Of a stretch of 64,000 nucleotides of DNA, positions 45,075-64,000 are shown piece after piece. The translations under genes and the position numbers were made by a program. Each line of letters starts with the position of its first letter. Positions within the stretch are counted from its first letter, which is position 1. The DNA comes from an uncultured Nitrososphaerota archaeon (lineage in GTDB: Archaea > Thermoproteota > Nitrososphaeria > Nitrososphaerales > Gagatemarchaeaceae). The DNA lies in NCBI GenBank assembly GCA_963718895.1, contig CAVRAG010000008.1:1088001-1152000 (forward strand), given 5' to 3'. The notes under the pieces were generated by a model. That model had not been told where the DNA came from and did no database searches. It saw only the letters and a list, made by a program, of their open reading frames with translations.

Positions 45075-45230
45075 ATCCACGTAAGTGTTGACAATGTCAC
45101 TAATCATAAAGACTTTTGTCAGAATTGATTTCGTTTTGGTCATGGTCGTATTCCTCAATCGTAACTTGATTATTTGGTTCCCATGTCAGCAGATAAGAGA
45201 TCATGAAACCACCTGCTTAGGGAGGCCAGG

Positions 45231-46885: not shown

Positions 46886-46942
46886 GTAGGGATTATTGAA
46901 CGACAAGAATCTTAATTAGCGAGTCCACAAATATCTTACTGC

Positions 46943-47482: not shown

Positions 47483-47696
47483 AGAGTTGAAGGACATAGT
47501 TACGCAACAGGCAAATCAAACGGTCCGGGCAATGATGCAGGTGGTCCAAGACTGCCTGCAAGTCGAAATCTCACTAACTAGTTGCGCCTAGCTGTCCTGC
47601 CTTGCATCCTCGACGCCAAGAACTCGCGTTCTTGCCAGACACATCGCGCCGAGCCGAGTGGGGCCACCAGACCTCTACTCGTCCTCTCGTAAGTTC

Positions 47697-47873
47697 ATGG
47701 TCGTTTTAGACTACGCGGCGTGGAACATTTTCGTGGCCATGGCGGGGGGCTTTGCGATTCTCTACATGGCAATGCTGATAATACTAAGTAGCGGCCCTGG
47801 TGAAACTCGCAAGCTGAAGGTTGCGCAAGACGATAATCCCTCCATACATGAGTTCTCCCCCACACCGGCCTAA
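47697..47873 (+). CDS. Small single-pass membrane peptide (copy 1)
   Basis: MVVLDYAAWNIFVAMAGGFAILYMAMLIIL...; paralog at 57530. Confidence 0.6.
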   Translation: MVVLDYAAWNIFVAMAGGFAILYMAMLIILSSGPGETRKLKVAQDDNPSIHEFSPTPA

Positions 47874-48003
47874 AGTCGTCTGAATTTGCAGGGTAGACGG
47901 TTCGAAGGTCCAAATGAGGTCCAGAAGCCCTGCAATCTGCGTCTCTTAAAACTCAGGTGAATCTGAGAGAAGGGAGGAAAGGTTTAGAAAAAAGGGCAAC
48001 ATC

Positions 48004-49056
48004 TTGACCGTCATGGGTGCCAGCGCTAGGCAGGTTCAAACTAGGAAGTCCATGCGCGAGGCACCCTTGAAAGTGGGACTTACCTACGACACGCGGGACG
48101 ACTTCAAGTTCGTCAGTGATGAGCCAGACGACTGGGATGCAGAGTTCGAGGTCTCAACGGCGATAGACGACATCGCTCATGCCATAGAAGACGGAGGTCA
48201 CGAAGCCGTCTTCATCGGAAGCGGCAGGAAACTGCTGGAGAACTTCCATCACTTCGAAAGCTCGGTCGACGTCGTATTCAACATAGCTGAAGGCTACTTC
48301 GGGAGAGCCCGGGAGGCACAGATCCCCGCCATGCTCGAACTGGCCGGGGTCCCCTACGTCGGTTCCGACAGCTACGCTCTCGCTCTTGCGGCGAACAAGT
48401 GGCACACAAAGGTCCTGGCACTGAACTACGGCGTCAGGACCCCGGCATTCGAGGTCGTTCACACGGCCGATGAACTCGACACACTCGGTCTGAAGTATCC
48501 GGTGATTCCAAAGTTGTGTTACGAGGGCAGCAGCAAAGGACTGAGAGCCGATTCGGTAGCCCACGACAAGATAGAGTTGACGCGCCTGACGCGGTATCTG
48601 CTTCGGTCGTACAAGCAGCCAGTGATAATCGAGGAGTTCATCGAAGGAAAGGAAGTCGACGTGCCGATGATCGGTACCTCCCCTTCGAGTGCGTTTGGCG
48701 TCGTCGGACTCACACTTGATGGCAGTCTCGACCTGAACGAGCGGTTTCTCACTTCGAGCATAGTTCGAGCCGACGGGTACGGGTTCAGATTCCCGCTGGA
48801 TGAACCGTATGTCGGAGAAGTGGAGAGAGGTGCGGTCAAGATTTACAATCTGCTGGAATGCAAGGATTTTGGACGGATAGACATGAGAATCAGCAGGGAA
48901 GGCACACCATATCTCCTTGAAGTAAACCCATACCCATTCCTGGGAAAGCACAGCAGCTTCAACGCGATAGCGGAATCGACCATCGGCTACACCAGGATGA
49001 TAGGGATGATCCTCGAAAGCGCCCTTCGCAGGTACAGCCTGAAGCCGGTGCCCTAG
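48004..49056 (+). CDS. ATP-grasp ligase, D-Ala-D-Ala ligase-like family
   Basis: VFNIAEG, REAQIP, PYVGSD, EGSSKG, EEFIEGKE, GRIDMR, LEVNP. Confidence 0.85.
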   Translation: MTVMGASARQVQTRKSMREAPLKVGLTYDTRDDFKFVSDEPDDWDAEFEVSTAIDDIAHAIEDGGHEAVFIGSGRKLLENFHHFESSVDVVFNIAEGYFGRAREAQIPAMLELAGVPYVGSDSYALALAANKWHTKVLALNYGVRTPAFEVVHTADELDTLGLKYPVIPKLCYEGSSKGLRADSVAHDKIELTRLTRYLLRSYKQPVIIEEFIEGKEVDVPMIGTSPSSAFGVVGLTLDGSLDLNERFLTSSIVRADGYGFRFPLDEPYVGEVERGAVKIYNLLECKDFGRIDMRISREGTPYLLEVNPYPFLGKHSSFNAIAESTIGYTRMIGMILESALRRYSLKPVP

Positions 49057-51538
49057 TCCAGGAAATGTATGTCGCAGGGGTAGTAGCCGAGCTCGTAGAA
49101 CCATTTCTGGGGGCGGTTTGTGAGAAGATCTGGTTCGACGTCTCGACATCCTTCATTCCCTCCGTTTCCTTCCCAAGTCTTGAGAGGATTGTCCCCCTCA
49201 GTCTCAGTCGCTTGCCATGGACGAGGGACGTGTCTCCTTTCCACTCGTTGGGAGGATACTTCTCGACCCATTCCAGAGCCTCACGATACCTCCCCATCGC
49301 CAGCAGGACGGTCGACAGATTGAAGGCGAAGTAGTCTTGGATCAGCGGTTCCCCCGACCTTTCGACGAGCGGAATCAACCTCGCCAAGATCTCGAAGCTC
49401 TCCGTGTACTCACCTCGCAAGCTGTAAATCATGGCGATGTTGGTGAGGATGCAGATTCTGTCGAAGTCCTCGGTTGCTTTGCTCTCGGCCTCGCTTAGGA
49501 CATCGTAGGCATTGTCGAGCCGCTTCATCTGCGTGTAAACGATCCCCAGGTTGTTGAGAGGGGCATCTATCTCATAGGAGTCGATTTTGCGGTATATCAC
49601 AAGCGCCTGGGACAGGTTGGACTCTGCAGACTCGAATTGGCCCAAGTACAGTTGTTCTGCACCCATGTTATTGAAGGACCGAGCCAGCTCGATTGTTGAG
49701 TCGCTCTGCCTGAATACATTGATGGCTTGAGTTATCATGTCCACCGCCCGTCTCGAATCATAGATCATCCCAGACTTCCTCTGCAACACCGCCAACCCTG
49801 TAAGGTCTCTCACGAGATTGAAGGCCTTCTGACTCTCCCCGTAGTAATCCTTCGCCTGCTCATGGTTTCCGAAGTGGTCGGCCAAGGTGGACAGGATTGA
49901 ATACGTCGAACCCCTCATGTGCTGATTCTGGGTCTTCTCGAACACTCGTGCTGCGACTTCGAGGTGTTCTCTTCCTCTCTCGCTGGCTTCGATGGTGCCG
50001 ATAAAGCGGCAGCACTTCCCGGCCAGAAGGTGAGATTGAGCGAATTGCTCAGTCTCGAGAGTGCATCTCTTGATCGCGGACAAGGAGTGAGCAAAGGCGT
50101 CGCCGAACAACCCGCTCGAGAACTCTGCGGTTGCGAGCTCCAGCAAGAGTGAGGCTTCCGAAAGGGGCTCGATCCTGACCTTCCCACTCTCGACCATGAA
50201 CAAGCAGCTTCGTAGGTAGTTTACCGCACTGCCGAACGAGAGGTTCCTTGTCGACATCTCGGCAGCGTTCCGATACAGCGGAAAGGCGGTGTAGTAGTTG
50301 CCGGCCATCTCATAGTGATAGGCCGTCAGTTGCGGTTCGTCAGCGGTCCTTCCAATCCTGTCGTAGTATTCGGCAACTTCACGGTGCTGGTCCCTTGCGA
50401 GGGAGCCTTGAGAGGCGAGGATGACCTCTCTGGTGGTATCGTGGTCGAACTCGCAAGAGTCGGGCGATTCCGTCTCACGGATGATCCCGTAATCAGAGTC
50501 GACCTGTTCGAGAATGTGCTTCACCTTCAGAGCTTGGAGGCCCGAGATGAACGCCACATCCTCGACCGAGAACCGCCTTCCCAGCATCGCGGCGTAGTCC
50601 AGCACCAGACGAGCGTCTCCGCTCTCCTTCTGAATCTGCAAGAGCTGGTTACCCACGAAACTCCGGAGTTCAGCGGGCAAAGCCTTCGGGAGTGCGTCCG
50701 AACCTCTCATCTCCTTGATTGTCTTCACGATGTACAGGGGGTTGCCGCCGGTACGCTCGACGAGCACGTTCACGTTCCGGCCCTCGATCCTCCCTCGGGA
50801 CATCTGCTTGACGAGTTGTGCGGACGAACGAACGCGGAGCGGCTCGAGATGTACGAAGGTTGAACCGACGTGACTAGCCATCGCTTCAATTATCGCAGCG
50901 TTACCCTTTTCTCGCTCAAACGTAGCGCTCTTCTCCCTGAAGCACAGGACCGCCAACACTCTAATCTTGGCTATGTTGTCGATCAGGTAGCCGAGGGCCT
51001 CAAGGGAGGAAGAGTCGAACCTCTGGGCGTCGTCGAAGAATGCCACGATGGGCCTCTTCTTGGAGACCTTCTCGAACAACGCGAAGAAGACGTTTCTTAC
51101 GTAGAGGGAGTTCGAGATCTGTCTCACGTCGGTCGAGGACAATCCTGCGACGCTTTTGGCTAAGTTGACCCCGATGTCAACGTACTGGCCAATCGAAGGC
51201 ATTAGCACAGCGAGGTTCGCCAGTGTCGAAGCCACCTGTTTCCCTCGATCGCGGCTGGTCGTGGTTTTGAGGAGCCCTTCCAGCATCTCTCCCAGGGCCG
51301 AATAGGGGCCCGTCGCGTATTCTCGGCCCACCGCCCGGACGACGAAGGCAGACTCTTGATTCACCTCTCCGAGGAACCTGGCTGCAAGCGCTGTCTTCCC
51401 CACCCCGGGCTCGCCGTTAATGAAGACCGCCCTTCCGATTCCTGTTTGAATAACCTCAGCGAGAGCTTCGTTTAGAATCGAGAGTGGTTCCTCTCTGTCG
51501 ACGAAGATGTCCTCGGTTTCCGTCCGCACTCTGGACAA
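49053..51538 (-). CDS. STAND-like AAA ATPase plus TPR repeats (frameshift near 49120; true C-terminus probably ...WFYELGYYPCDIHFLD)
   Basis: FVDREE, GEPGVGKT, FFDDAQRFD, TGGNPLY, FDHD, TPR helices (NNMG, LNNLG). Confidence 0.8.
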
Positions 51539-51626
51539 CTGGCGTTTCGAGGCAGCGGGTGGTTATATTTGGCTTACCAATCATAATCACCGCCCGCTTT
51601 AGTCACGTCTTCTAGATGGGTCAGAG

Positions 51627-52058
51627 ATGCTTCAAAAAATCGAGATTCGGCCGGTTGAACTGTATGACGCTGTTCCGCTCCTGCGGCTGGAAGCGAGATG
51701 CTTCGGGATGAGGTATTCGTCGAATTCGCTGTATTACTGGCGACCGATACTCGATTACTGCTGGGCCTACAAGGCCGCCCGAGACGACGAGATTCTTGGC
51801 GGAGTGATAGCAATGCCGACTCGGCAAGGGAAGGTGTACATCAACTCACTTTTCGTTCATCCTCGAATGCGAGGGTTGGGCATCGGGTCCCAACTCTTGG
51901 GAACAGTCCTCGGGTTGCCTGCCATTGGTTTCGTTCTGGATGTCAAAGTTGACAAGAGACGACTAATCGAGATGTACCAGAGGCATGGATTCAAGATCAT
52001 TAGGAACGAGACAAACTACTACCTGGACGGGTCGGACAGAGTTGTAATGGAAAGGTAG
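51627..52058 (+). CDS. GNAT N-acetyltransferase (RimI-like)
   Basis: LFVHPRMRGLGIGSQLL, YQRHGF, NYYLDG. Confidence 0.85.
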   Translation: MLQKIEIRPVELYDAVPLLRLEARCFGMRYSSNSLYYWRPILDYCWAYKAARDDEILGGVIAMPTRQGKVYINSLFVHPRMRGLGIGSQLLGTVLGLPAIGFVLDVKVDKRRLIEMYQRHGFKIIRNETNYYLDGSDRVVMER

Positions 52059-52121
52059 CTGTAAGACTTGGGTTCATGGCCCTTCATCTTCGCGGTTCAA
52101 TGCAAACGCGTTCGAGAGACC

Positions 52122-52484
52122 TTACCCAAGTTTCCCGTCATTTTCGGGAAAGGTATGGCTGTCATTGCAACCGTTGGACGGCGGTTCGGTGTTTATCCGC
52201 AGTGAAGCTGGGTTGGATTTCCAACTAGCGCGCCGGTGTGGATTACGGCCGCCGACAAAGACTAGCATCATCCCAAGAATACTAAGGGCGACGGAAAGTC
52301 CAAAGACCCAGCCAGAGTAGGCAAGACTTGAGACTGAGCTTGGCCCGAGGTAACTTTGAGGAGAGCTCCGGAGGCTGACCGATCCCGTCGCAACTACCAA
52401 AGCGAACAGGATCATGGCGACACCGCAAGCCAACTCTAACTTCCAACTATACTCGTTGATTCCCGTTTCGTGTTTCAAACTCAA
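52122..52484 (-). CDS. Small two-TM membrane protein
   Basis: Two hydrophobic helices; downstream of the secreted protein at 52648. Confidence 0.55.
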   Translation of the reverse strand: MSLKHETGINEYSWKLELACGVAMILFALVVATGSVSLRSSPQSYLGPSSVSSLAYSGWVFGLSVALSILGMMLVFVGGRNPHRRASWKSNPASLRINTEPPSNGCNDSHTFPENDGKLG

Positions 52485-52647
52485 TCATCTAGCCCGCGCT
52501 TGGAGGGAAGTATTTACGTCTAACTTGAGACGGGCAGATGCCATCGTGCTGTCTAAAACTATTGGGGTGAGGTCGCCTCTCGCCAAGTTCGACCTCAGCT
52601 TGATTCATCACTTGGCGGCGAGACCTTCTCGACTACCCACGCAATCA

Positions 52648-53367
52648 CTAGAAGGAGGGGAATGAGTAGCTCCATCCGGTGCAGTAGGAGCCGAGGTACC
52701 ACCAGCTGGTCGAATCAGGACTCATATAGCTCCAGGTGTCAGATGCAGAGTTGTACTGGACAGCGGGCCAGCTCGCGATGCCTTGGGCCGTTATGACGCC
52801 TTCCGCTCCTCCTTGCGCTTCCTCCGTCCAGGCAATTGTGCCTCCCTGACCATACGAAGTACTTCCCGGACCAGAGCATTGAGCTTCGCCGTTGCTTACA
52901 TAGCCAGTGGAACAGTTACTCGGACCGTTGCAGATTCCCACTCCAGTAATGACGCCTTGGGCATTGACATTGACTTCGAGGACGTCCTGGGTGTACATAG
53001 CGACGCCAAGAACGTTGGTCCAGGTCATCGACTCTTGTGACGACATCTCACACGGACACGTGATGAGCGGTTGAGCGCCGCCTGCGCTAGTTGAGCTCTG
53101 AGTCGTATTGATGGATATAGTTGTTTGTTCCCATAGACCTGGCGATACCTGTATCTTGGGGAGAGTTTCTGACCAATAGCCACCTGGCCCTACAACAGAA
53201 CCACTGATTGTGATGTATGTGGGTTGAGTAGAGGCAAGTGTATGGGACACGGGAAGTGCCAGCATGAGAAGGATTATGGAAATGCTAGCGGCTTTCATCA
53301 ATGAAGATCCTTTAGCCTTCCATCCTTTAGCTGAGAGTCTTGTATTCGGCAGAAACGTTTCTTTCAT
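52648..53367 (-). CDS. Secreted Cys-containing protein
   Basis: Signal peptide (IILLMLALPVSHTLA), linker ending AQPL, then a Cys/Trp/Gly-rich domain. Confidence 0.6.
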   Translation of the reverse strand: MKETFLPNTRLSAKGWKAKGSSLMKAASISIILLMLALPVSHTLASTQPTYITISGSVVGPGGYWSETLPKIQVSPGLWEQTTISINTTQSSTSAGGAQPLITCPCEMSSQESMTWTNVLGVAMYTQDVLEVNVNAQGVITGVGICNGPSNCSTGYVSNGEAQCSGPGSTSYGQGGTIAWTEEAQGGAEGVITAQGIASWPAVQYNSASDTWSYMSPDSTSWWYLGSYCTGWSYSFPSF

Positions 53368-53444
53368 GATTGTAGTCTCATCACAGATGACATATAATGA
53401 GCAGACATACCAAGTGATACTTTTTACATGGGTTAATCCGGCCT

Positions 53445-53999
53445 TTGCCCATGGAAACGATAATCCACCACGCCGCAGAACGCCACCAACTTCACCCTGT
53501 TCATGTCAACTTCAAGATTCCGTCAGAAGTGCACAACTCTCTGGAGAGAGCGGCGATAGACGATAAGTTAAGTTTGAATGCACTAGTAAACCAGATTCTC
53601 TCTAGGTATGTCTCGTTTGAGAAGACAACGGTCGACGAACCCGTCTTAATTCCAAAGTTTCTATTCGCCGAACTGATCAAAGCTTTCCCGGAGGAGCAGG
53701 CCAAAGCGGCAGGGGCGCTGTTGGGCGCCAAGCTAAGACAGGATTTTGCTTTCCATGGGATCAGACAAGACTCCCAGGCGATTCTGAATTTTCACCTTCG
53801 GCAGATGGGTGCGTATTCAAGATGGTATAATCTTGAAGTGTCGAGGACCGACGTTCGAATAAGAGCCGCTCTCTTGCATGGGTATGGTCAAAACTGGTCG
53901 GCATTCTTGACCCAGTACTATCAATCAGCCATAAAGGCCGTCACAGGCGCAGATCCTCGAATAGAACATGAAGGCGGCACCATAGTAATCACATTCTGA
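53445..53999 (+). CDS. RHH-like plus HxxG..WS domain regulator (same family as 46943)
   Basis: VNFKIPSEVHNSLERAA....SLNALVNQILSRY; LHGYGQNWSAFL. Confidence 0.7.
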   Translation: MPMETIIHHAAERHQLHPVHVNFKIPSEVHNSLERAAIDDKLSLNALVNQILSRYVSFEKTTVDEPVLIPKFLFAELIKAFPEEQAKAAGALLGAKLRQDFAFHGIRQDSQAILNFHLRQMGAYSRWYNLEVSRTDVRIRAALLHGYGQNWSAFLTQYYQSAIKAVTGADPRIEHEGGTIVITF

Positions 54000-54260
54000 G
54001 CGAAGAAGCAGTTATTCTGACTCTCATCCCAATGGTTTCTGCGGCGCAGGGCCCGATTGACTTGGTTGAGCCTTGGGATTCCTAGTTCGAGTATTGGGAA
54101 ATCTAGTGTCGGCGGCACAGGGACGCCGATCGCGAGGATTTCAGCCAAACTGTGAACCGTAGCTAGAGCCGGTCGAGAAGGCTGATATGCCAACTAGCGT
54201 CAAGACCAAGGACAGGGCGGACGAATGCGGCCTTTCTGTCAACCGTCCCACTGAATCAGG

Positions 54261-54581
54261 CTAGTTTCCATTTTCGTGCCTAATCGTGAAGTACTTTTGC
54301 TGAAGGTTCTCTAACCGAGAGAGCAGTTCTAGACCGTGCGAAGTGATATACATCTTGGTCCTAGAATTATTGGTCTCGGCGCGCATGAAACCCTCGAGGA
54401 TCAGATGGTCGAGCGTGCTTCTGAGCTCCTTCTCCTCAGGCCTCAAGCCTGACCAGCCATAGATCTCATCGATCAGCTCCCATTCATCCATTGGTTGACT
54501 GCGCAAGGCCGTCAGGATGACTAGCTGCAGGTTGGCTTTCAACCACTTTAAGCGTATTCTGAACTGCGTCCAGTTCATCAT
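54261..54581 (-). CDS. PadR-like winged-helix protein
   Basis: LVILTAL...PM...ELI...L..L..EG......YITSHG. Confidence 0.65.
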   Translation of the reverse strand: MMNWTQFRIRLKWLKANLQLVILTALRSQPMDEWELIDEIYGWSGLRPEEKELRSTLDHLILEGFMRAETNNSRTKMYITSHGLELLSRLENLQQKYFTIRHENGN

Positions 54582-54607
54582 GCTCCCATCACCGAATGCC
54601 TTCTGAG

Positions 54608-54973
54608 TCAGCGGACGTGGTCTGCCTGAGGACCTGTGACGCTGAGGCGCAGCTGCATGAGACTGAGCTCATCCCTCCACCCCTTTAGCAAGATGCGGCC
54701 AAGAGGCGTCAATCGTAGGGAGGTCCTTCTTCCGTTCTTCACCTTTGTAATCGCCCCGCTGCCTTCCATTGAGTCAATCACAGGGTACACCTGTCCGGGG
54801 CTGAGGAGGACCTCGAAATCCACGCACACTGTGGCGATGATGTCATAGCCGCATACGTCTCGTCTATCGACGTTATCCAAGATCAGGTATTCAAGCATGG
54901 AATTGACAAGGCCCCGCCTGTAACGTCTTACCATCAATTCGACGCCGTCGCTTCCTATCGATTGGGCCAACAA
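54608..54973 (-). CDS. PadR-like winged-helix protein
   Basis: LIL......CGYDII...LSPGQVYPVI...E..G.I......LTPLG. Confidence 0.75.
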   Translation of the reverse strand: MLAQSIGSDGVELMVRRYRRGLVNSMLEYLILDNVDRRDVCGYDIIATVCVDFEVLLSPGQVYPVIDSMEGSGAITKVKNGRRTSLRLTPLGRILLKGWRDELSLMQLRLSVTGPQADHVR

Positions 54974-55021
54974 TCCCGATACCTATGGCTGAAATGACAA
55001 TGCACCTGTAATAAACGTTTC

Positions 55022-56152
55022 ATGAAGATAGGAGCGATTATTAGGGTATTCGTTAACGTCTTGCCGTTGAGCGAGAGAATCGCTGACCTAGTTCAGGCGA
55101 TTAACCGCATCGGGATAAAGAACGTCGCTGCGCTGTCACGCATGACCAGCATGCCCAAAGAAACCATCAGGTATATGCTCAAGAAGAGGTTCCCCGTGCT
55201 CGACCTTGCTGTCGAGACCGTCTTCAACTTGGGTGAGCTGGGCCTGCAGCGGTACTCTGCAACCTTCAAATTCGCGCCGAACGCGCTGCCGCACGCCAAT
55301 TCAATCCTCGACAAACTGGCGAGCGTGGCCTTCCTGACATACCGCTCGGGGACGCTCCTAGAGCCAACGCACGTCGCGCTTTTTGCGGTCCCAGTGCTCG
55401 TTGAGGAAGAGTTCCAGTCGTTTCTGAGAGGCCTCGTCGACGCAGGAGTCCTGAAGGGCGTGGAGTCCAAGAGGTTGGAGTGGGCGAGGAACCCAGAGTT
55501 GAAGTGCGAGTACTACGATTTCGACTCCGGACACTGGAACGTAGACTGGAAGGCGGTCGGGTCGCATCACGAGGCACCCCCCTCTCCAATCGTCGTGGAC
55601 CAGCCTCGCCTGAAGCCGGCCATCGATCGGAGCGACATCCTCCTGATTAAGGAGCTTGAGGCAAGTTCGCTGAGGAACCTTGCGGAGATCTCGGGGAAGC
55701 TCAAGATGAACGCCGTGACCCTCAGGTGGCACTACAGGAAACACGTGCTGCCAGTCATCTCTCATCACAGGGTGCGTTGGATCCCGGCGCGCGGTGGTGA
55801 CAAGTCCAAGGTTGTGGGTGTCTCATTCGGCTTCAGCCAGCTTACGAGGTCGCAGATCGGAAAGGCCAGACTGCTATTCAACAATTTTCCTTTTGCCTGG
55901 TACGAGGCGGGGTCGCGCGACGGGAGCTACAGGGCCGACTTGGCGATTCCAATCAACGAGTTGGTCCCTTCGCTCGAGTTCCTGAACGCAAGGTTGGGCG
56001 AGATGTCGCCTCCTCCATGGAAGACTTACGTCCTCGATCTCCCATCGAGCATGCATTACACTGTTCCCTACGAGAACTTCACCGAGGAAGGGGGGTGGGC
56101 CTTCGACCCCGAGGAGGCCCTGAACTCGATTCTTTCAGTCGCGAGAGTCTGA
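55022..56152 (+). CDS. Large Lrp/AsnC-like regulator with two HTH modules
   Basis: N-terminal NVAALSRMTSMPKETIRY plus LGL; second module IDRSDILLIKELE..SLRNLAEISGKL.M...TLRWHY; YYDF..G.W and F...GGW motifs. Confidence 0.7.
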   Translation: MKIGAIIRVFVNVLPLSERIADLVQAINRIGIKNVAALSRMTSMPKETIRYMLKKRFPVLDLAVETVFNLGELGLQRYSATFKFAPNALPHANSILDKLASVAFLTYRSGTLLEPTHVALFAVPVLVEEEFQSFLRGLVDAGVLKGVESKRLEWARNPELKCEYYDFDSGHWNVDWKAVGSHHEAPPSPIVVDQPRLKPAIDRSDILLIKELEASSLRNLAEISGKLKMNAVTLRWHYRKHVLPVISHHRVRWIPARGGDKSKVVGVSFGFSQLTRSQIGKARLLFNNFPFAWYEAGSRDGSYRADLAIPINELVPSLEFLNARLGEMSPPPWKTYVLDLPSSMHYTVPYENFTEEGGWAFDPEEALNSILSVARV

Positions 56153-56176
56153 GAGCAGCATCGTCAGTCTGTCATT

Positions 56177-56320
56177 CTAGGTGGGGCCTCCTCCGATCGG
56201 ATCTCCGTCGAGCCCGCCGATGTGAAGCGGGAGGAGCCCGTGAGTCGCGAGGGTGATCGCGACCAATCCAAGGACGAGGGGGACCCACAGGTGGAGGTTG
56301 TTCCGTAGCGATAGTCTCAT
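56177..56320 (-). CDS. Unannotated 47-aa hydrophobic propeptide (candidate signalling peptide precursor)
   Basis: MRLSLRNNLHLWVPLVLGLVAITLATHGLLPLHIGGLDGDPIGGGPT*; TAATATT box 21-27 nt upstream of the ATG; below the ORF-track cutoff. Confidence 0.6.
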   Translation of the reverse strand: MRLSLRNNLHLWVPLVLGLVAITLATHGLLPLHIGGLDGDPIGGGPT

Positions 56321-56577
56321 GACCGCGGGGTGCCCCGACGAATATTAGCACACTATTCAGACCGAAGTTACTAAATTCGTAAAGTCCAGCGGATAACGTA
56401 AGTCAAATTCGATGACGTTGGCGGTTGGCCTTCTTTCCTGCCGACCGAAAGCCTCCTACAACCATGCAATAGTTGTGGAAAATGTGGCGGGTCGGCATGT
56501 CAACTTTATCGTTCGCACGATACGCATGTATGTCTGTGGTGTAAACGCTTATCTCAGCCTCTCATCCTCCGAAAGAT

Positions 56578-57474
56578 GTGAGCGACACAGAACTCTTGGT
56601 GGGGGAGGACGCCAAGCTCGTAGTTCTAACCGAGGTAGAAGAGAAGGTTCTGACGATAACCGCCAACGTCACGCCAGAAAGCGTGGGCACTGACAAGATA
56701 AAGAGGGAAGGGACGAAGTTCTTCGCTCCCGGAGGCAAGTTCGGGGCGTTCCTCGGCGCGGTCAAGCCCGACGACATCAAGGTCGCCAGGAAGACGGCCG
56801 TGCTCCGCCCTTATTGGCGGATATCCGGAGGCTTTGCCTGCAGGTACCTGAGACGGCACAGCCACAGGCTCTCGCTGGAGAACGATGTGGAATCTGTGAC
56901 CATCTACGGAAAGCCACAGTCCGTCACCGGCGAGAGGTTGCGATTGAGCGACATGCTCGCCAAGGCCGGTGCGAGCACAAGCTTGGGTTACGGACCTGTG
57001 AAGCTGTCGCTTGGCCCTCTGGAGAGCATTATGAAGGGGAAGATTTCCTCTGTACTCGGCAGCAAGGATACCGAGCTGGAGCGCAGGGTGGAGGTTGCCC
57101 TGCCCGACATAATCGAGAGCGCAGTATTCACCTACACGGGGCGGTTCCTGTTCGACGCGACTCAGGGAACGGAGAGCAAGGAGATCTTCGACCTTCTCGA
57201 AGGCAAGGACCTCATTCCAACGAGAGAACCTGCGCTCAAGAGGACAGGGCTCGTGCTGGAGCCGTCATTTACCAGGGAGGAAGTTATCGAGGAGGTCAGG
57301 AAGCGTCTAGCCAAGAAGCCGGAGGAGACTCCCCGCAGGGTCATCGAGCAGGAATTCGTGTTGACCGAGCTGTGCCTCATATACCTGCCCTCGTACGACT
57401 TCACGCTGGAGTATAACGGAAAAATGAGGACTCTGCGCCTCGATGGCGTGACAGGCGAGTTCAAGGCGAGTTGA
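56578..57474 (-). other. Antisense shadow ORFs (56626-56865, 57162-57464); not coding, the gene is on the + strand
   Basis: They lie opposite the 298-aa + strand ORF. Confidence 0.3.
56578..57474 (+). CDS. Conserved hypothetical archaeal protein
   Basis: 298-aa ORF with host-like codon use; PYW and IYLPSY...LDGVTG motifs. Confidence 0.7.
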   Translation: MSDTELLVGEDAKLVVLTEVEEKVLTITANVTPESVGTDKIKREGTKFFAPGGKFGAFLGAVKPDDIKVARKTAVLRPYWRISGGFACRYLRRHSHRLSLENDVESVTIYGKPQSVTGERLRLSDMLAKAGASTSLGYGPVKLSLGPLESIMKGKISSVLGSKDTELERRVEVALPDIIESAVFTYTGRFLFDATQGTESKEIFDLLEGKDLIPTREPALKRTGLVLEPSFTREEVIEEVRKRLAKKPEETPRRVIEQEFVLTELCLIYLPSYDFTLEYNGKMRTLRLDGVTGEFKAS

Positions 57475-57529
57475 CCAAAGAATGGGAGATATGGACGACC
57501 TAATCATGATTCCAAGCGCTTTGATAATC

Positions 57530-57652
57530 ATGGCGGTCATGGATTACGCGGCGTGGCAGATTTTTGTGACAGTCGCTGGAGGCTTTGCAATCCTCTACAT
57601 GGGCTTGCTGATAATACTCGAAGTGGCGGTCGTCGCAAAACTCGTAAGCTGA
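57530..57652 (+). CDS. Small single-pass membrane peptide (copy 2; probable 1-nt deletion in the tail)
   Basis: MAVMDYAAWQIFVTVAGGFAILYMGLLIIL; the shifted frame gives KTRKL, matching ETRKL of copy 1. Confidence 0.55.
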   Translation: MAVMDYAAWQIFVTVAGGFAILYMGLLIILEVAVVAKLVS

Positions 57653-57783
57653 TGTTTGATCGATAAAGGACGTAAGATCACTCAGGGCTAGTTCTTCTCT
57701 ACCAACGGCTTCCGCTTTCTCCCTGAGATTGACTCATCTAATTGTGATGCTCTAAAACATAACTTTTTACACAACCAATTGGT

Positions 57784-58224
57784 ATGATTGTGGTGCGAAC
57801 GCTAATGAAGCCTCAGCATTATGCTCACGTCTCGTTGCGAGTTGCTTTCGTCGTCGTAGTCTCATTAGTGTTGATGATGCTCGGAATGGTCGTAGCGCCA
57901 TTGGTGTCGGCTTCCTCTAATCAGTCCCTCCCGTTATCGCAATCCACGGGGCAAGCACAATTCCGGTTCAATGATACGGTCTCTGCCGTGGTGAATCTGG
58001 TATACGCGACTCCAATACCTGGGGCGGGACAACCCCACTCAAATGGGACAGTAGTCGTCCCAAACGCGATCTCATCACCTGCGAACACGTCTGCCCCATG
58101 CGTGCCGAGCTTGGCATATCCAAGGTCGAATAACCCTACGGAATCCACGGGCCCACGAACCGCTTGCTCTTCTGGAGTCGCTCTCCTCACAGTGGTTGGA
58201 GTGTGTTGGAGCGTCCCCGATTAA
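57784..58224 (+). CDS. Putative secreted protein (possibly truncated)
   Basis: Signal-peptide-like hydrophobic stretch ending VSA-SS. Confidence 0.45.
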   Translation: MIVVRTLMKPQHYAHVSLRVAFVVVVSLVLMMLGMVVAPLVSASSNQSLPLSQSTGQAQFRFNDTVSAVVNLVYATPIPGAGQPHSNGTVVVPNAISSPANTSAPCVPSLAYPRSNNPTESTGPRTACSSGVALLTVVGVCWSVPD

Positions 58225-58771
58225 GGTGAAAGAATGGGACTTTCTCTCAGGAAACTATCAGTCGAATTTGGAATCGAGAGACCGGTCTTGCTCAAATTGA
58301 AGGCCGAATTCGAGAGGGAAAAATAGCGTAGTCTGAACTACGAGCGTCTCAGGATAAGGTTGCGGAACATGCGGGATGCAAGATTAGAGAATAGGCCTGT
58401 CGTTCAATTTCAAAGAGAGCGAGTATCAAGCAGGGCAAGATTGATGAGACAGATTTGAATCTGAGGCTAATGCGACTGGGTACAAGAATTGAAATAGGCA
58501 GGTTGGCATGCTGCATTCAACGGGAGCAGCGACATAGCCTAGTCTGCCCTCTCTTTCGAGAGACCTACCCCAATCTTCCGACAGCCTATACTACGAAGGA
58601 ATCAAGAGGAATGACGACATAGGTTCGGTAAGCTTCAAGTGGAATTTGCTGCAAGAACACATCTTGTTCCAGCACGTTACAGTCTTAGAAGCAGCAGGAA
58701 AGACATAGAGCAAAATGGAAGGACTATGCTAGTGTCGAGTATGAACCGAAGAAGAGACCACAGCTAATCGC

Positions 58772-59314
58772 CTAGCGTTTCAATAGAGTGGCGAAGAAAT
58801 CCAATATGATTGTCTTGTTAGTCCTGTAGAATTCCAAGGCCGCTTGAAGGTTATGAGCCCTCTCACCCATGTAGCTGTCATCCAACTTCGAGAAGAACAA
58901 GACTGCGGTATCTAGAAGGTCGTCCACAAGCGGCACCAAGTTCCAACTCCTCTCTTCGGGTTTCACATTCAGCCTTCTCCAATCAAGGTGGGCGATCTCA
59001 TTGTTCACCCTCTGTTCTAGTTTCTGGAGGTTATCCGTCCAATCTCCTCTAATCTTCTGCCACCCGTTGACGTAGTCAGATGCTTGTGCATGACCCTTGA
59101 CCGCTCCGTAGAAGAAGAATTCGAGAAGATTGCGAGAGTGCAGGAGGGTGTGCTCGAGTGCCGTATTCTGAAACACGACGAAGAGGTTCCCATCAATCGA
59201 GGCCTGATGTTTCACAAGGGAACCAAAGAAGGACCTGCAATTGAGCAGCTCCTCGACCTCGTAGCAGACATGCTCGTTGAGGAAGCGTACCTTGTCTTCC
59301 TCGCTCCGCTCCAC
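58772..59314 (-). CDS. HEPN-like protein (AbiU2-type)
   Basis: E...LH.RNL.EFF and RVNNEIAH (Rx6H) motifs. Confidence 0.55.
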   Translation of the reverse strand: MERSEEDKVRFLNEHVCYEVEELLNCRSFFGSLVKHQASIDGNLFVVFQNTALEHTLLHSRNLLEFFFYGAVKGHAQASDYVNGWQKIRGDWTDNLQKLEQRVNNEIAHLDWRRLNVKPEERSWNLVPLVDDLLDTAVLFFSKLDDSYMGERAHNLQAALEFYRTNKTIILDFFATLLKR

Positions 59315-59353
59315 AAAGTCTTGACTATGGCGGTAAGAGATATTCGTTGCGCA

Positions 59354-60337
59354 CTATTTAGTCTCCGGTTGACGAGTCAACACGTCTACGATTTGTGGTA
59401 TTCTACGATAGACGAAATAGATTAGACCGAACACGATGGCAAGTGTGAGGAAATACCAAGGAAAGGCTTGTGTCCTTATGAGTTCGAAGAAGGGTAAGAG
59501 TAGCGTAGCGAGGATAAGCAAGAGGGTAATTGTGATTAGAGACACCGAAAGACGTTCAAGGTTCTTTGATGACTTCTTGACTTCATCAATACTCGCCACT
59601 TGTCTTTTCATGGTCAGATAGAGAATCCTGCCGTGTAATTCTAAGGCCTTGATGCTATCATTTACAGCAGGTGACCTGTCCTTTTCTACCTCGCCTATCT
59701 TGTCGGTTGTCTTCTTAGTCAGTTCGTCAATCTGGGAGATCAACTGTTCAATATCTGCGTCAGGCGGGAGTTCAGCAACCACAGAGGCATCGGAGGCAGC
59801 GGTAGATGCGGCTTGAGTAGGTTGCTGAGGTGTTGTAGGTGTCGGTGGTTGCAAAGGCGGTGGGTTTGGCTCTCTAAGATTGAGCAGGTTCCCTAGGAAT
59901 AGGATTAGCACGATGAGGAATCCAATCATGGCTGCAATGGTGGCGTCAGCTATCCAGACATTGCTGAACTTGATGATTATCCCGCTGACTAGACCGATCA
60001 CCACTAAGCTGCTAAACGCAGTTGCCATGAGGTAAGACGAGACGACATACATCGACTTGGCAAAATTGTGGAATCTTACCACCCGGTCACGGTAAAGCAA
60101 GAGAGTGTAGGTCAGGAGAGCGAAGACGATGAAGAGGACTCCGAAAGTAATCACAATTTCGAAGTGTAGAGAGTTGATTTGCTGCGCCAGCGTCTGAGTT
60201 GTCGCGGTTGAATTTCCACTTGGGGTGGGAGTGAGAGAAGATTCCGAGGGTAAGGTGAAACCTAGGAACACGGCGAGCAGTGAGCCCAGGGTGAGAATGT
60301 GTTCAACGAACCTTAGCTTTCTCTCATATTCGTCCAA
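59354..60337 (-). CDS. Multi-pass membrane protein with coiled-coil
   Basis: Four plus two TM helices separated by a Pro/Thr linker and a coiled-coil. Confidence 0.6.
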   Translation of the reverse strand: MDEYERKLRFVEHILTLGSLLAVFLGFTLPSESSLTPTPSGNSTATTQTLAQQINSLHFEIVITFGVLFIVFALLTYTLLLYRDRVVRFHNFAKSMYVVSSYLMATAFSSLVVIGLVSGIIIKFSNVWIADATIAAMIGFLIVLILFLGNLLNLREPNPPPLQPPTPTTPQQPTQAASTAASDASVVAELPPDADIEQLISQIDELTKKTTDKIGEVEKDRSPAVNDSIKALELHGRILYLTMKRQVASIDEVKKSSKNLERLSVSLITITLLLILATLLLPFFELIRTQAFPWYFLTLAIVFGLIYFVYRRIPQIVDVLTRQPETK

Positions 60338-60342
60338 TAACG

Positions 60343-60909
60343 ATGTTAGACTTCGAGCAGTTTCTTAAGGGTTCTCACCGTTTATTCTCGCACTGCCGAA
60401 GGCAGTTTCAAGACGAAACGGCTCATTATGGTAGCATTGGAACTTGGACCAACAGATATTACATGCGCCCTGACCATTATTTCGGACAGCGTCGAAAGAT
60501 GGATGTATGGCAGATAGGAATTCGGGGGTTCGCTATGCCAGTGCTCTCAGTCGCAGATGCTGGGTTCACCTATGCCATTAATCAGGTGGTTACGAGTTTG
60601 GCTCAGACATGGATAGGAAACGGTCGCGTGCTAACCACGATTCCAGAATACGGGTTGTTTGCCATTTCCGTGGTCCTAATGATGTTGTTCATGACGATCC
60701 TGGGCTACTTTGAAGATCTGACACATGGACTTGACTTCCCTAAACAGGCCGTGGTTTATGCTATAGGAGCTTCGGCTGGGCTTGCTTATTTTGGCGGTGC
60801 GATAACCGAAGTAACCTTGGGGGGCATAGGTTCAGACGCCATCTACTCTTCTGTAGCTTCCATCATCATACTGCTGATAGGAGCGGCAATTAGCATGAAC
60901 CTGAATTGA
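60343..60909 (+). CDS. Membrane protein (start probably near 60499)
   Basis: Three to four hydrophobic helices. Confidence 0.5.
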   Translation: MLDFEQFLKGSHRLFSHCRRQFQDETAHYGSIGTWTNRYYMRPDHYFGQRRKMDVWQIGIRGFAMPVLSVADAGFTYAINQVVTSLAQTWIGNGRVLTTIPEYGLFAISVVLMMLFMTILGYFEDLTHGLDFPKQAVVYAIGASAGLAYFGGAITEVTLGGIGSDAIYSSVASIIILLIGAAISMNLN

Positions 60910-60953
60910 ACGTTAACCCCTTCTTGAACTTGCTATTATGGTCTTTTCGTCTT

Positions 60954-61868
60954 CTACTTCGGGTATATGCTAAGAACGTTGCCTTCTCGCTCTTCGAGTA
61001 GCCCTATTGCGACGGTTGTCCGAAAGTCCGAGTTGGCGAGAAAGCCCTTGAGCATCCCCTTCGGATTGAAGACTCTCAAATCGCCGTTATCTCCGCCTCT
61101 TCCCTTGACCAGCTTGATTACGTCCTGCGTATAAGGACTGATGGATGCGAAGCGAGAGATTCTGACCGATTCCCCGATCGCGGCTTTAGAGATCTGCTCC
61201 GTTGCAGCGAGCCATTTGGTGACGTCTTCCTTGGTGGGAGACCCGCCTCGGCTCTTGCACTCGGCAATGGCGACTAACTTGCCATCGCTATTGAATCCGG
61301 CGACGTCGATGTCATAGGGCACCCCGTCCCTGCCAACAATCTTCTGCCTGAACTTGATCGTTTCAATCTTGTTCTTGTCGTGTATGTACTCTCCCATCCT
61401 CCACTCGAAGAATCTCCCCTGAGGGTCAGACTGCATCTCGCAGAAGGAGGTATACAGACCCGCGAGGGCTCCATCGCTAAGAAGCTCGAGCAGCTCAACC
61501 ATGTTCTTCTTGAATTCAAACCTAGACCTGTAGTACTCGGCAATCTGCTCTATGACCGTCTTGCTGATCTTCGCCTTGGTGAGTTCAACGATCATCTTCT
61601 CTTTGGGAACGTCGATTCGCTTGACCTCACGGAGTGAAGTACGGACGACGGTTCTCCTGATCTTCTCCTTGACGGTCGTCTCACGCTCAATTTCTTCCTC
61701 GGTATACTGAACGACATACTCCTTGACTTTCTCGTAGGATAAGACCCCACCCACCAACATGGAAAGGAAAGCTTTGTCTGCGCTCGCAGGGTACCTGATC
61801 CCTTCACTGTCAGCTATCTTCTTGAGCTGCTCTGCGTCCAGCTTTCCAATCAACTCCTGGGCAGACAA
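60954..61868 (-). CDS. PD-(D/E)xK restriction endonuclease-like protein (Mrr-cat type)
   Basis: GRFFE, I.G..G..YDIDVAG, IAECK, ..DV..W motifs. Confidence 0.7.
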   Translation of the reverse strand: MSAQELIGKLDAEQLKKIADSEGIRYPASADKAFLSMLVGGVLSYEKVKEYVVQYTEEEIERETTVKEKIRRTVVRTSLREVKRIDVPKEKMIVELTKAKISKTVIEQIAEYYRSRFEFKKNMVELLELLSDGALAGLYTSFCEMQSDPQGRFFEWRMGEYIHDKNKIETIKFRQKIVGRDGVPYDIDVAGFNSDGKLVAIAECKSRGGSPTKEDVTKWLAATEQISKAAIGESVRISRFASISPYTQDVIKLVKGRGGDNGDLRVFNPKGMLKGFLANSDFRTTVAIGLLEEREGNVLSIYPK

Positions 61869-61996
61869 CGCACATTCTGATACAATCCTACATAGATAAG
61901 CTCTTCCGATGCTTCCTCAATGTGGGTGGCAAGGCGAGTGACTGCCGAGATGCACTATGTTGCTCTCGCCGATTTCATTGAGAGGTCATGCGATTC

Positions 61997-62893
61997 TCAA
62001 TGCATTGAATGGAAGAGTTGCGACCACGATTGAAAGATCGGGTCCAGGCTGTACTGCACGATGTACGGTGATACAGCGATGAGAACCGGGACTGCTATCG
62101 CTAATGTGCCCAGGATCCAAGTTTGGTTCCTTCTGACAGCCACGCCGAGACCAGCCCTATCCACTAGCTCGGTTGTTGTCTTCCCCGTTCTCTCAGAGAG
62201 TTCCTTCACAAAGCCGTTGTAGTCTACGGAATCCGAATCAAGACACCTCAGCAGTCTTGAGATGGACAGCCTCCTCAGGGGAGAGCCGAATAGAGTTGCG
62301 TTAAGGCTCAAGTCGTCTCTTAGTGCCAGGCCCACGTTTTTAGCGCTCAAACGGCTGAAGTACGCCAATGAATCGTCGAGCCATGAGGTCGTGGGTGGTC
62401 TTTCGGCGTCAAACTCCGACAACAAGCAGGCACGCAGGGCGTACACGGGTCGAGGAGACCAGAAATTCAACTGCGTCTGAATCAGAACTAACTCTACCGC
62501 CCAGATGTATAGGAAAGCGAGCGTTAGTGGGCTGCTTGAGAAGAACGTGGCAAGGTCATCATGAATGAGCGGGGTGGCGACGCCCAGGATTAGAGCTCCA
62601 AGCATAATGAAGTACCCTGTCCGTTTGATCCCTCTCACCTTGGTAAGGAATGCAGAAGGATGGGCAGCCGACATGGTCGGTGTCTCATCGTCCCAGCGCC
62701 CCGCTAGACGTCTCCCAACCGCAAAAGGAAGGAGTAACATTGCCGATCCCGTGACAAGCAAGCTGAACGCCTTTGGAACCCCTGCAAGGATGGGGACGAC
62801 AGCCATCGTCAGAGAGAGAATTCCGATTAGTAAGCTCCACCACAACAAGAGAATGAATTCCGTGTATCTGGTCTGCCAGAACTTGTCATTCAA
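61997..62893 (-). CDS. Membrane protein, unknown function
   Basis: About five hydrophobic helices. Confidence 0.55.
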   Translation of the reverse strand: MNDKFWQTRYTEFILLLWWSLLIGILSLTMAVVPILAGVPKAFSLLVTGSAMLLLPFAVGRRLAGRWDDETPTMSAAHPSAFLTKVRGIKRTGYFIMLGALILGVATPLIHDDLATFFSSSPLTLAFLYIWAVELVLIQTQLNFWSPRPVYALRACLLSEFDAERPPTTSWLDDSLAYFSRLSAKNVGLALRDDLSLNATLFGSPLRRLSISRLLRCLDSDSVDYNGFVKELSERTGKTTTELVDRAGLGVAVRRNQTWILGTLAIAVPVLIAVSPYIVQYSLDPIFQSWSQLFHSMH

Positions 62894-63009
62894 TCAACAC
62901 GTCTGCCCCAGCCCTGATACTTAGGCTTGATTGCCCTCGCAGCAGGACACTGTGGACATGCAATGGTTGGCGACTATTCATACTCGACTGGCCTTACGAT
63001 TGGTCGCCG

Positions 63010-63675
63010 CTAGGGCAGTTGGTCTTTCGCCAATCTTGAACTGGCGAACCGGTTGTCGATGAAGAGCCTTTCGATGGACTCCTTGAGCTCCTTATTGTCG
63101 AATTTCCACTCCTCTGGGGAGAAGACAAAGCTGCTTGCCGCACTGTAGAGCAAACCAAGGAAGAAAAATTGAGCTTCGTGGCTCAGCTCGCAATTGTGGC
63201 ACCACGCCTCTTCCGATTGCTTGGGAATGAACTCCAGCGGGATGGTCCTCTTGCTTGCTCTTTCCATAGTATCTTGCAGGAATTTGTGGAAGACTGGGAA
63301 TAGCGTCTTCTCAATCTCGACGCCAAAATTCTCGTCTATCCAATCGCCGAAGCCTGTGTCCAAGATGGCAGGAAGCCACCTTGAGCGTAGGATGTTCCTA
63401 TGCGCCTTGAGTTCATTGTCCCACTCCCTTTCAACAACTCCTCTTTCATGTAGAGCCTTGAGAGTCTGATAGATTATCGATCGCCCAACTCGAATCTTCT
63501 GTTCGCTCAACCTGTCGGAAACCTTGCTCGCAGTCAGTCCTTTGGGTCCTGCTTCCCAGAGGATGTTTATGACGGCGAATGTGGGCTCCTTCGAGAGCCA
63601 CAGCGCTTCGCTCTCGCTCTCCACGGGATAGCTGGAGAAATACCTGTTTTCAAATACCGAGTCCTTTGATGACAT
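63010..63675 (-). CDS. Winged-helix transcriptional regulator with C-terminal CxxC-xxx-H metal site
   Basis: VINILWEAG..GLTASKVS...RSIIYQTLKALHERGVV; WCHNCELSHE. Confidence 0.65.
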   Translation of the reverse strand: MSSKDSVFENRYFSSYPVESESEALWLSKEPTFAVINILWEAGPKGLTASKVSDRLSEQKIRVGRSIIYQTLKALHERGVVEREWDNELKAHRNILRSRWLPAILDTGFGDWIDENFGVEIEKTLFPVFHKFLQDTMERASKRTIPLEFIPKQSEEAWCHNCELSHEAQFFFLGLLYSAASSFVFSPEEWKFDNKELKESIERLFIDNRFASSRLAKDQLP

Positions 63676-64000
63676 GATCTTACCTCATGGTGAGGGTGAC
63701 TCCCGAGGTAGATAAGCAGGAATCATGGATTCTAGAGAATCCCGTATTCTCTGGATTTCTAAACCCAGGGACATAGACGGGCGGTTGGACCTGGCATGGC
63801 ATGACACGAATCAAAGACTGGTCTAAGGTCGGGAATATACCCGAAGAGCCGTGCGAGTACAAACTATTTGATGGTGATAAGCTGATCCGCAATGGCAGCT
63901 CATGCAACTGCAAGAGAAGACTGAAAGAACACCGAAGAAGCATTGCCGAGGCGACCGGGTTCAAGGTTCGCCTGACTCGAAACTGCGAGGAAGCCAGAAC

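Follow-up and report, generated by a model that had tools for sequence, protein, structure and literature searches.

A hidden open reading frame (ORF) for a peptide of 47 amino acids and the convergent gene of a double Lrp/AsnC-like regulator were found to belong to a widespread two-gene family (at least 507 peptide clusters in sequence databases; both genes in 57 of 201 sampled Nitrososphaerales genomes), and we are highly confident that the pair is real and functionally coupled. The two genes lie in a stretch of 64,000 nucleotides (hereafter the window; G000:C8:1088001-1152000) from an uncultured Nitrososphaerota archaeon. The genome under study, G000, is a metagenome-assembled genome (MAG) of 3.13 Mb, 80.5% complete with 5.4% contamination. 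In window coordinates the pair is laid out as follows:

55022–56152, plus strand: gene of the tandem Lrp/AsnC-like protein; longest ORF 376 aa, likely start at TTG 55067, giving 361 aa
56177–56320, minus strand: small gene, 47 aa, recognised by conservation, frame-specific dN/dS and profile rank

The small gene encodes MRLSLRNNLHLWVPLVLGLVAITLATHGLLPLHIGGLDGDPIGGGPT, exactly the peptide quoted in a first-pass annotation that had been made from the letters alone and had proposed a peptide-sensing system for this locus. The basic N-terminus, hydrophobic segment and acidic, Gly-rich tail described there agree with the charge (+2 on the N-side, −2 on the C-side) and hydropathy (1.87 for the best 19 residues) of the peptide, in which a helix of transmembrane strength is followed by the invariant Gly28 and, after this Gly, by the tail LLPLHIGGLDGDPIGGGPT. 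A spacer of 24 nt (56153–56176), the distance also given in that annotation, separates the stops of the two convergent ORFs. The peptide matched no family of Pfam, NCBIfam or Rfam, and an Rfam scan of positions 54500–57000 gave no match at E ≤ 1.

The length of the small ORF is no better than chance (an ORF of at least 47 aa arose in 839 of 1000 shuffles of the 425-nt gap), so that the case for it rests on conservation and linkage; two further frames of the same strand are also open across 56177–56320. Close copies were compared from the window, a paralogous locus on contig C4 of G000 and genome G144 (n=3). They differ at 27–29 nt, mostly at third codon positions, and the sole indel among them is of 3 nt and in frame. 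The ratio of nonsynonymous to synonymous substitution rates (dN/dS) was 0.28–0.46 in the frame of the small gene vs 0.97–1.40 in the remaining two sense frames; in the antisense frame with the same third positions as the small ORF it was also below 1, as expected, and in the regulator, for comparison, it was 0.12. The first-pass annotation had made its reading depend on coding-type conservation of the ORF, and the in-frame ratio bears this out. About 70 nt on the 5' side of the ATG are conserved in the three copies as well, beyond which identity is 54–64% over 200 nt. A profile trained on sequences from other genomes, with the closest relative G144 also excluded, was used to rank the 29,583 ORFs of 25–130 aa in G000. 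Ranks 1–5 were taken by five ORFs adjoining regulator paralogs, the window ORF being third (E 0.0015); an earlier profile, which included L005 and L007 of G000 itself, recovered those two trivially and placed the window ORF outside the top 40. The small gene is real and under purifying selection.

Thirty-five loci were oriented by their regulator homolog and the flanks scanned for small ORFs. Most have a convergent ORF of 40–80 aa directly downstream, even where the regulator is 28–33% identical to that of the window, and these ORFs share the layout M..D.K[IV]R.G, about 20 hydrophobic residues, (A)HG and ..[PF]L[DE].IGG.. along their length. The first-pass annotation had proposed such a scan, for ORFs of 35–60 aa with a hydrophobic core and a D.IGG.P-like tail, and the outcome was clearly positive. 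In 26 regions of ~18 kb scanned with the peptide profile, the sole significant match in 19 was convergent and lay 3–229 nt from the end of the regulator gene; L054 lay outside the training set. An order-wide sample of 201 Nitrososphaerales genomes, searched with the peptide and regulator profiles, had the peptide in 58, the regulator in 66 and both in 57 (57, 65 and 56 of 200 without the unpublished G108, which contributes one peptide and three regulator matches). The only genome with a peptide and no regulator (G158) has a weak match, E 9e-4, within a 308-aa frame. Convergence to a listed regulator match was found for 76 of the 95 peptide matches (median distance between match ends, 36 nt), and nine others lie upstream of the regulator and divergent from it. 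All nine belong to family f7, with regulators 23–26% identical to that of the window; the divergent order was confirmed on five loci (L059–L063, in G044, G054, G113, G088 and G034), with gaps of 160–330 nt and peptides of the form MSTDEKIRLGLLALS...LDEIGG.G.. encoded there. Ten of the 95 have no listed regulator neighbour; 23 regulator matches are unlisted and some contigs are short. Convergent pairs number one in 24 genomes, two in 13, three in 3, four in 3 and five in 1. That the genes stay adjacent when their order changes is a good argument for functional coupling; across Nitrososphaerales, the linkage of peptide and regulator genes is tight and specific and exists in two arrangements.

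The distribution within the order is uneven. In f12 and f15, the two best-sampled families, the regulator profile had no match in 40 genomes of each, and the peptide profile none in 40 and one weak match in 40, respectively. No peptide match at E ≤ 1e-4 was obtained in 400 other genomes drawn phylum-wide, a draw without any family that was positive in the order-wide sample, which therefore bounds the range of the peptide only loosely. The MAGs that bear homologs are named 'Nitrososphaerales archaeon' by their sources. PF12942 (archaeal AmoA) had no match in G000, from which nothing follows, the control also having matched nowhere and the genome being 80.5% complete.

Two of the loci used in these comparisons are unusual in themselves. 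On contig C4 (G000:C4:238812-240079; L002/L003/L009) the regulator paralog, 78% identical to that of the window, has its reading frame broken in two by a frameshift within the second helix-turn-helix (HTH) domain, around ...LLIKELEAGSL...; the convergent small gene and its promoter box are intact. Either the receptor gene has become a pseudogene while the peptide gene survived, or the MAG assembly is in error here. In G144, two regulator/peptide pairs with identical scores occur on one closed contig (G144:C1:1736104-1737355 and 2160540-2161791), which represents either a recent large duplication or an assembly artefact.

The longest ORF of the regulator is probably 15 codons too long, because homologs of 361–365 aa align from about residue 16, and TTG 55067 is the probable start (361 aa). 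This start would leave a divergent promoter region of 93 nt in common with a PadR-like gene upstream. Of the first-pass description of a 376-aa regulator with two Lrp/AsnC-type HTH modules, the modules were recovered in both fold and family profiles; the length was probably overestimated. Forty-five homologs of 336–407 aa were found, many with a precomputed PF13404 assignment. The window copy had no NCBIfam match and no Pfam match at E ≤ 0.1; PF13404 (HTH_AsnC-type) matched 30 of the 46 aligned members, the window copy not among them. Altogether the 46 members match 16 Pfam families, and at E ≤ 0.01 all of these are HTH-type DNA-binding families, bar two single-member matches. Against solved structures the regulator profile matched ST1022 (E 4e-5) and PH0140 (E 1.8e-4), and more weakly LrpC, LrpA and PH1519, the matches covering mainly profile positions 180–327 and being fainter on the first half. 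The nearest clusters in the ESM Atlas are unnamed or Lrp/AsnC-type archaeal HTH proteins of 349–415 aa.

An AlphaFold2 model of the regulator built on the 46-sequence alignment (predicted local distance difference test score, pLDDT, 92.3; predicted TM-score, pTM, 0.89) consists of two consecutive modules, each of a three-helix HTH and a beta-alpha-beta-beta-alpha-beta domain, with the HTH domains at H16–59 and H203–245 and the beta-alpha-beta-beta-alpha-beta order seen twice in the DSSP assignment. In a Foldseek search each half of the model matched whole chains of classical Lrp/AsnC regulators (2efn, 2dbb, 7fby, 2cyy, 2cg4 and 8q90) over 137–154 columns (TM-score to target 0.52–0.65). At full length the best matches were the siroheme decarboxylase NirDL (4ch7, E 1e-8) and 4czc (E 5.6e-8); the alignment to 4ch7 spans 375 columns at 10% identity, with a TM-score of 0.53 (query) and 0.62 (target), and the root-mean-square deviations for the enzyme are 7.5–10 Å. 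Conservation is strongest in the two predicted recognition helices (R40, E47, T48, R50 and Y51 in the first; N230, T233, H237 and H241 in the second), and a conserved Trp-rich segment follows each ligand domain, W154, W172, W176 and W359 being nearly invariant. Because of the HTH families, the Lrp/AsnC profile and fold matches and the conserved recognition helices, we read the modelled protein as a DNA-binding pseudo-dimer of two fused Lrp/AsnC modules. Prediction of a complex from the regulator (A1) and peptide (A2) alignments gave 0.01 and 0.00 against a mark of 0.32; controls were not run and the result is counted neither way.

At E ≤ 0.01 the peptide profile retrieved 507 clusters from 5.8 billion proteins; a set of 1.84 billion proteins yielded 105 representatives at 50% identity. 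Database members are called 'hypothetical protein' or unnamed throughout and none has a Pfam domain; the longer entries are N-terminal over-extensions by gene callers. Pfam and NCBIfam gave no family for any of the 23 aligned small proteins, with a chance-level match to MS_channel (E 0.024) in one of them, and the best ESM Atlas score of the peptide, 0.81, was uninformative. Both families are without a curated model, and the peptide family is unnamed. Among the 120 best members, the N-terminus M-T-L-D-E-K-I-R-Y-G is near-invariant, small residues are abundant in the helix, a single Gly that follows it is 100% conserved and the tail has the consensus P-L-[D/E]-x-I-G-G-X-G-x (D or E in 96%), in which X after the GG is the most variable column (1.28 bits). 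Alternative tail types occur, for example L[DE]GGG.AD, and the paralogous peptides of G000 carry differing tails. The whole unit after the Gly is repeated in tandem in some members, twice in L013, P0217 and P0236 and three times in L014 and L015, and each repeat begins directly after the invariant Gly.

Sec signal peptides follow a rule of small residues at positions −3 and −1 of the cleavage site. In the peptide family, 238 of 248 members have at least two K/R within the first 12 residues, the hydropathy of the best 19 residues is at least 1.6, that is, of transmembrane strength, in 86%, and 218 of 248 have a net negative charge on the C-side; ahead of the invariant Gly, 199 of 240 members have A, T or S at −3, and Gly occupies the presumed −1 in 100%. 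The basic n-region, h-region and small −3/−1 residues of a Sec-type signal peptide or anchor are thus all present as judged by heuristics, and the features fit a predicted signal peptide or signal anchor with the N-terminus inside and the C-terminus outside (N-in/C-out). The h-region is long (18–22 residues), which makes an uncleaved anchor equally possible. A class III (type IV pilin-like) signal was also considered. In work on FlaFind the class III motif is reportedly [K/R]-[G/A] immediately before the hydrophobic stretch; the family consensus K-[IV]-R-[YL]-G-M puts the basic residue at −3, not −2, and this assignment was rejected. In the window peptide (MRLSLRNNLHLWVP...), G or A is absent after the basic residues.

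A possible outlier of the family, L006 (G000:C7:130054-130242, minus strand), is an ORF of 62 aa made up of five tandem DPIGGFGPS units that adjoins a regulator paralog of 25–27% identity. It has no hydrophobic segment, a stop lies four codons on the 5' side of its ATG, it is the sole open frame across the repeats, and it matches the peptide profile at E 0.0013–0.014. Two readings fit this ORF: a multi-copy relative of the peptide tail that lacks a signal, or a decayed relic.

Upstream of the small gene a conserved promoter or operator footprint was found, with the following elements:

56341–56382, minus strand: promoter/operator footprint of the small gene, kept in 10 loci with regulators 45–80% identical
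56341–56347, minus strand: TATA-like TAATATT, 20 nt 5' of the small-gene ATG
56343–56374, minus strand: clade-conserved box TTAGTAAC-N6-CTGAATA-N6-TAATA
56368–56382, minus strand: imperfect palindrome TTACGAATTTAGTAA, 15 nt, overlapping the box; 12 of 15 positions match its own reverse complement

The spacing of TAATATT from the ATG, which had been noted in the first-pass annotation as leaderless, corresponds to the usual archaeal TATA-to-start distance, and a leaderless or near-leaderless mRNA would therefore fit. Over the ten loci the box has the consensus (A/T)TTAGTAAC-N6-CTG[C/A]ATA-N5/6-(G)TAATA and ends 20–29 nt before the start codon, the DNA around it being unalignable among them. In the 3.13-Mb genome the full pattern has a single occurrence; its core has two, one in the window and one at the C4 paralog. 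A distant clade (L020, L022–L024, L027, L029, L031 and L037) has a different box, TTGATGAAAAGG.GGAACTAG, about 30–45 nt on the 5' side of the peptide start, and the difference between clades suggests clade-specific operators. The palindrome may resemble the 15-bp boxes of Lrp. An autoregulatory loop would be expected to have such a private, clade-specific operator-like element before the peptide gene, and we infer that the regulator may bind the conserved box.

We propose that the two genes constitute a module of a cytoplasmic, DNA-binding double-Lrp regulator and its cognate small peptide. The precursor would insert N-in/C-out, and cleavage after the invariant Gly, at small −3 and −1 residues, or within the membrane would free a C-terminal unit of 14–20 residues. 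The freed peptide, or the precursor directly, would modulate the regulator, which would bind the box upstream of the peptide gene and close an autoregulatory loop; in the clade of the window the regulator would also act on the divergent PadR-like gene. Such a pair would be an archaeal functional counterpart of streptococcal SHP/Rgg, built on an Lrp scaffold not homologous to it. The small gene fits a pheromone-type precursor because paralogous pairs have differing tails, tails occur in tandem, an acidic residue precedes I-G-G and the promoter element is private to it. The full peptide-signalling mechanism, as deduced from sequence, is put forward tentatively, as something less than an even chance. 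We hold still more loosely to the generalisation that Nitrososphaerales of the non-ammonia-oxidiser type use encoded peptide pheromones, with one to five pairs per genome, a secreted, acidic, Gly-rich peptide of 14–20 residues, in some cases released from a multi-copy precursor, and a double-Lrp receptor that autoinduces the peptide gene.

In passages of an account of the streptococcal systems (PMC3679016), shp genes are divergent from rgg in groups I and II and downstream and convergent in group III, strains have up to six SHP/Rgg pairs, and the shp promoter is the target. The mature SHP is the C-terminal part starting with Asp or Glu, for example DIIIIVGG or ETIIIIGGG, and the protease Eep and the importer Ami, for maturation and import of SHP, are encoded elsewhere (PMC3679016). 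Measured against that account, the archaeal pair shares a small hydrophobic precursor gene beside a cytoplasmic HTH regulator, in convergent-downstream or divergent order, a C-terminal Asp/Glu followed by hydrophobic residues and Gly-Gly, several paralogous pairs per genome and the peptide gene's own promoter as the (here presumed) target; any protease and importer would likewise be encoded away from the pair. A propeptide gene adjoining the receptor, as in RRNPP systems, was found for 85 of the 95 peptide matches (76 convergent, nine divergent). The Rgg receptor, however, is of the tetratricopeptide-repeat (TPR) type, RRNPP receptors having a peptide-binding domain of this type and mostly an HTH as well, whereas the archaeal receptor has a fused double Lrp/AsnC fold without homology to it, and neither a TPR nor an Rgg family was found by Pfam among the 46 regulator members; the archaeal pair is therefore no member of RRNPP and at most an analogue. 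The archaeal precursor also differs in its length of ~40–47 aa, its strongly conserved N-terminus and its sometimes two to three tandem tail units.

Classical Lrp/AsnC regulators (the feast/famine regulatory proteins, FFRP: ST1022, PH0140, PH1519 and E. coli AsnC) resemble each half of the regulator in having an HTH and an alpha/beta ligand domain, and both the AsnC-type winged HTH and the RAM domain (beta-alpha-beta-beta-alpha-beta) are present in it. They consist, in contrast, of a single module of ~150 aa that forms dimers or octamers, whereas the regulator fuses two modules in 361–376 aa, has extra Trp-rich segments and, in the window copy, falls below all Pfam thresholds; the known ligands of solved relatives are amino acids. 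We know of no small peptide gene that is a partner of a classical Lrp/AsnC regulator. NirDL and AhbA-AhbB share the tandem double Lrp-like architecture, but besides the low identity to NirDL, none of the 46 regulator members matches the Pfam family of that enzyme at E ≤ 0.01, and the partner here is a small membrane peptide and not genes of the haem pathway, for which no dedicated search was made. Multi-copy precursors of secreted peptides are exemplified by the yeast alpha-factor and by multi-core precursors of ribosomally synthesised and post-translationally modified peptides (RiPPs). The peptides with a C-terminal unit present two to three times behind one N-terminal hydrophobic segment (L013–L015, P0217 and P0236) are like these, whereas most archaeal members, that of the window included, carry one unit.

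To our knowledge, peptide quorum sensing through a cytoplasmic cognate receptor has been described in Bacillota and their phages alone, and only a few non-peptide signals have been reported for Archaea. In the titles and abstract openings of the literature, no archaeal peptide/Lrp system was found; supplements could hold lists of small ORFs. Were signalling true, it would be the first cell-to-cell signalling in Archaea by a peptide with a cognate receptor, convergent with SHP/Rgg. Peptides would join the ligand range of Lrp/AsnC, among the commonest archaeal regulator folds, and communication of uncultured soil archaea would become open to experiment. The promoter box, the predicted cleavage point, the natural tail variants and the repeat forms are the parts on offer for testing.

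Several observations weigh against this signalling scheme or reduce the support for it. No peptide match was found in seven of the 26 regions, and while 85 of 150 listed regulator matches have a detectable peptide partner, ~43% (65 of 150) do not, which implies that the regulator fold can function in the absence of a peptide. The co-occurrence counts include related and hence non-independent genomes and overstate the statistical support, and no P-value is attached to them. A profile built without the three repeat-bearing members puts the window ORF at rank 14 (E 11), making the window clade a divergent branch of the peptide family. The first 10 residues (3.4–4.3 bits each) and the helix are conserved as strongly as the tail. 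The best full-length structural match of the regulator is an enzyme, NirDL, and solved Lrp/AsnC relatives bind amino acids (glutamine, Ile and D-allo-Ile in the entry titles). Clustering of the 26 regions gave no conserved protease, transporter or modifying enzyme near the pair. The first-pass annotation had counted an M50 site-2 protease and an Opp-type binding protein in the window as support. Both are present, the M50 protease at ~18690–19595, 36 kb from the pair, and the SBP_bac_5 protein at ~38137–39312, 17 kb from it; with M50 in 14 of 14 control genomes and nine SBP_bac_5 matches in G000, they are unlinked and of housekeeping type and provide no evidence for a peptide system. What stands of the peptide-sensing interpretation is the linkage of the pair, the coding conservation and the tandem Lrp fold; linked genes for processing and import do not.

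Many of the partner-less regulators match the family profile only to about position 348–352 of 368, and they seem to be without the C-terminal helix found in peptide-linked ones.

The conservation of the N-terminus and helix, unusual for a mere export signal, fits the alternative that survives best, in which the small protein resides in the membrane, spanning it once, and there is no diffusible peptide or signal between cells. As a micro-sensor or anchor it could tether or modulate the regulator by way of the conserved cytoplasmic N-terminus, or it could simply be the dedicated target of the regulator. Conservation over the whole length, including M-T-L-D-E-K-I-R-Y-G and a helix rich in small residues, a hydrophobic segment of 18–22 residues of transmembrane strength, and the lack of linked export, processing or import genes would all be in line with it, and the private box and tight adjacency are equally explained by a relation of regulator and target or partner. 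It leaves unexplained, however, the tandem duplication of the tail unit and the hypervariable tail position, which suggest that function, dosage sensitivity and specificity reside in the external tail. The invariant Gly with small residues at −3 resembles a cleavage site, moreover, and the cytoplasmic N-terminus offers only ~9 residues for contact. We regard a resident membrane protein as rather unlikely on balance; were it true, the pair would represent a new small membrane protein family hard-wired to a new regulator subfamily and a useful example for small-ORF annotation.

The structural match to NirDL, an enzyme that like AhbAB has a double-Lrp fold, raises the further alternative that the double Lrp-fold protein is no transcription factor and instead binds or modifies the peptide in a RiPP-like maturation pair, with the conserved N-terminal leader of the peptide recognised by the winged helices. 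A conserved, leader-like N-terminus and repeated tails reminiscent of multiple cores are compatible with this. At 10% identity to NirDL, however, with Pfam matches that are mostly of HTH type, profile matches to genuine Lrp/AsnC regulators, top-conserved residues in basic recognition helices and no modifying enzyme, protease or exporter conserved nearby, such a role appears improbable. Even less credit is given to a membrane-active toxin, holin-like or bacteriocin-like, restrained by the regulator and/or by antisense transcription. Small size, a single hydrophobic helix and several copies per genome would suit a toxin, and with 24 nt between the convergent stops the transcripts may overlap; but some pairs are divergent, an order that allows no overlap at the 3' ends, the tail is not basic but acidic and rich in Gly, and the intact small gene beside the broken C4 regulator would be hazardous for a toxin, although that break could be an assembly error. 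A chance ORF in GC-rich intergenic DNA, with the conserved DNA representing a non-coding element (a terminator or RNA), would account for the insignificant length and the other open frames, but we reject it as almost certainly wrong, since it is contradicted by the leave-out profile ranks, the frame-specific purifying selection and in-frame indel, the region scans and order-wide linkage, the protein similarity that persists at 23–33% regulator identity where the DNA is unalignable, the database clusters and the empty Rfam scan.

Neighbourhood clustering showed the regulator to be the only family common to all 26 regions. On the other side of the regulator from the small gene lie two small genes:

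54608–54973, minus strand: PadR-like gene, 121 aa; PF03551 at E 8.8e-6 and 26.1 bits, just below the 27-bit cut-off
54261–54581, minus strand: second small winged-helix (PadR-like) gene, 106 aa, with weak matches to HTH_45 and padR_acidobact

The PadR-like gene is upstream of the regulator and divergent from it in all seven loci of the window clade and in none of the 19 other regions; the 106-aa winged-helix family occurs in three of 26 (the window, the C4 paralog and L043). Beyond the small gene, an ORF of 298 aa without a Pfam or NCBIfam match (56578–57474, plus strand) is followed by a hydrophobic ORF of 56 aa (57482–57652, plus strand). The 298-aa gene adjoins the promoter of the small gene through a common intergenic region; both ORFs are absent at the C4 and G144 copies of the pair and are therefore probably an insertion and not a conserved output gene. 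The GC content is ~0.58–0.65 in the first 44 kb of the window vs 0.49–0.56 in positions 44001–64000, and these last 20 kb, which contain the pair and many family-less ORFs, may be a variable or acquired region. In L041–L043 (G118, G156 and G174), which have peptides with two to three repeats, the pair lies among proteins of 1,041–1,324 aa with hydrophobic N-termini. These large proteins form one cluster ('fam 7', six members in three loci), two other small families are common to the same loci, and the shared families, large and small, are possible clade-specific output genes.

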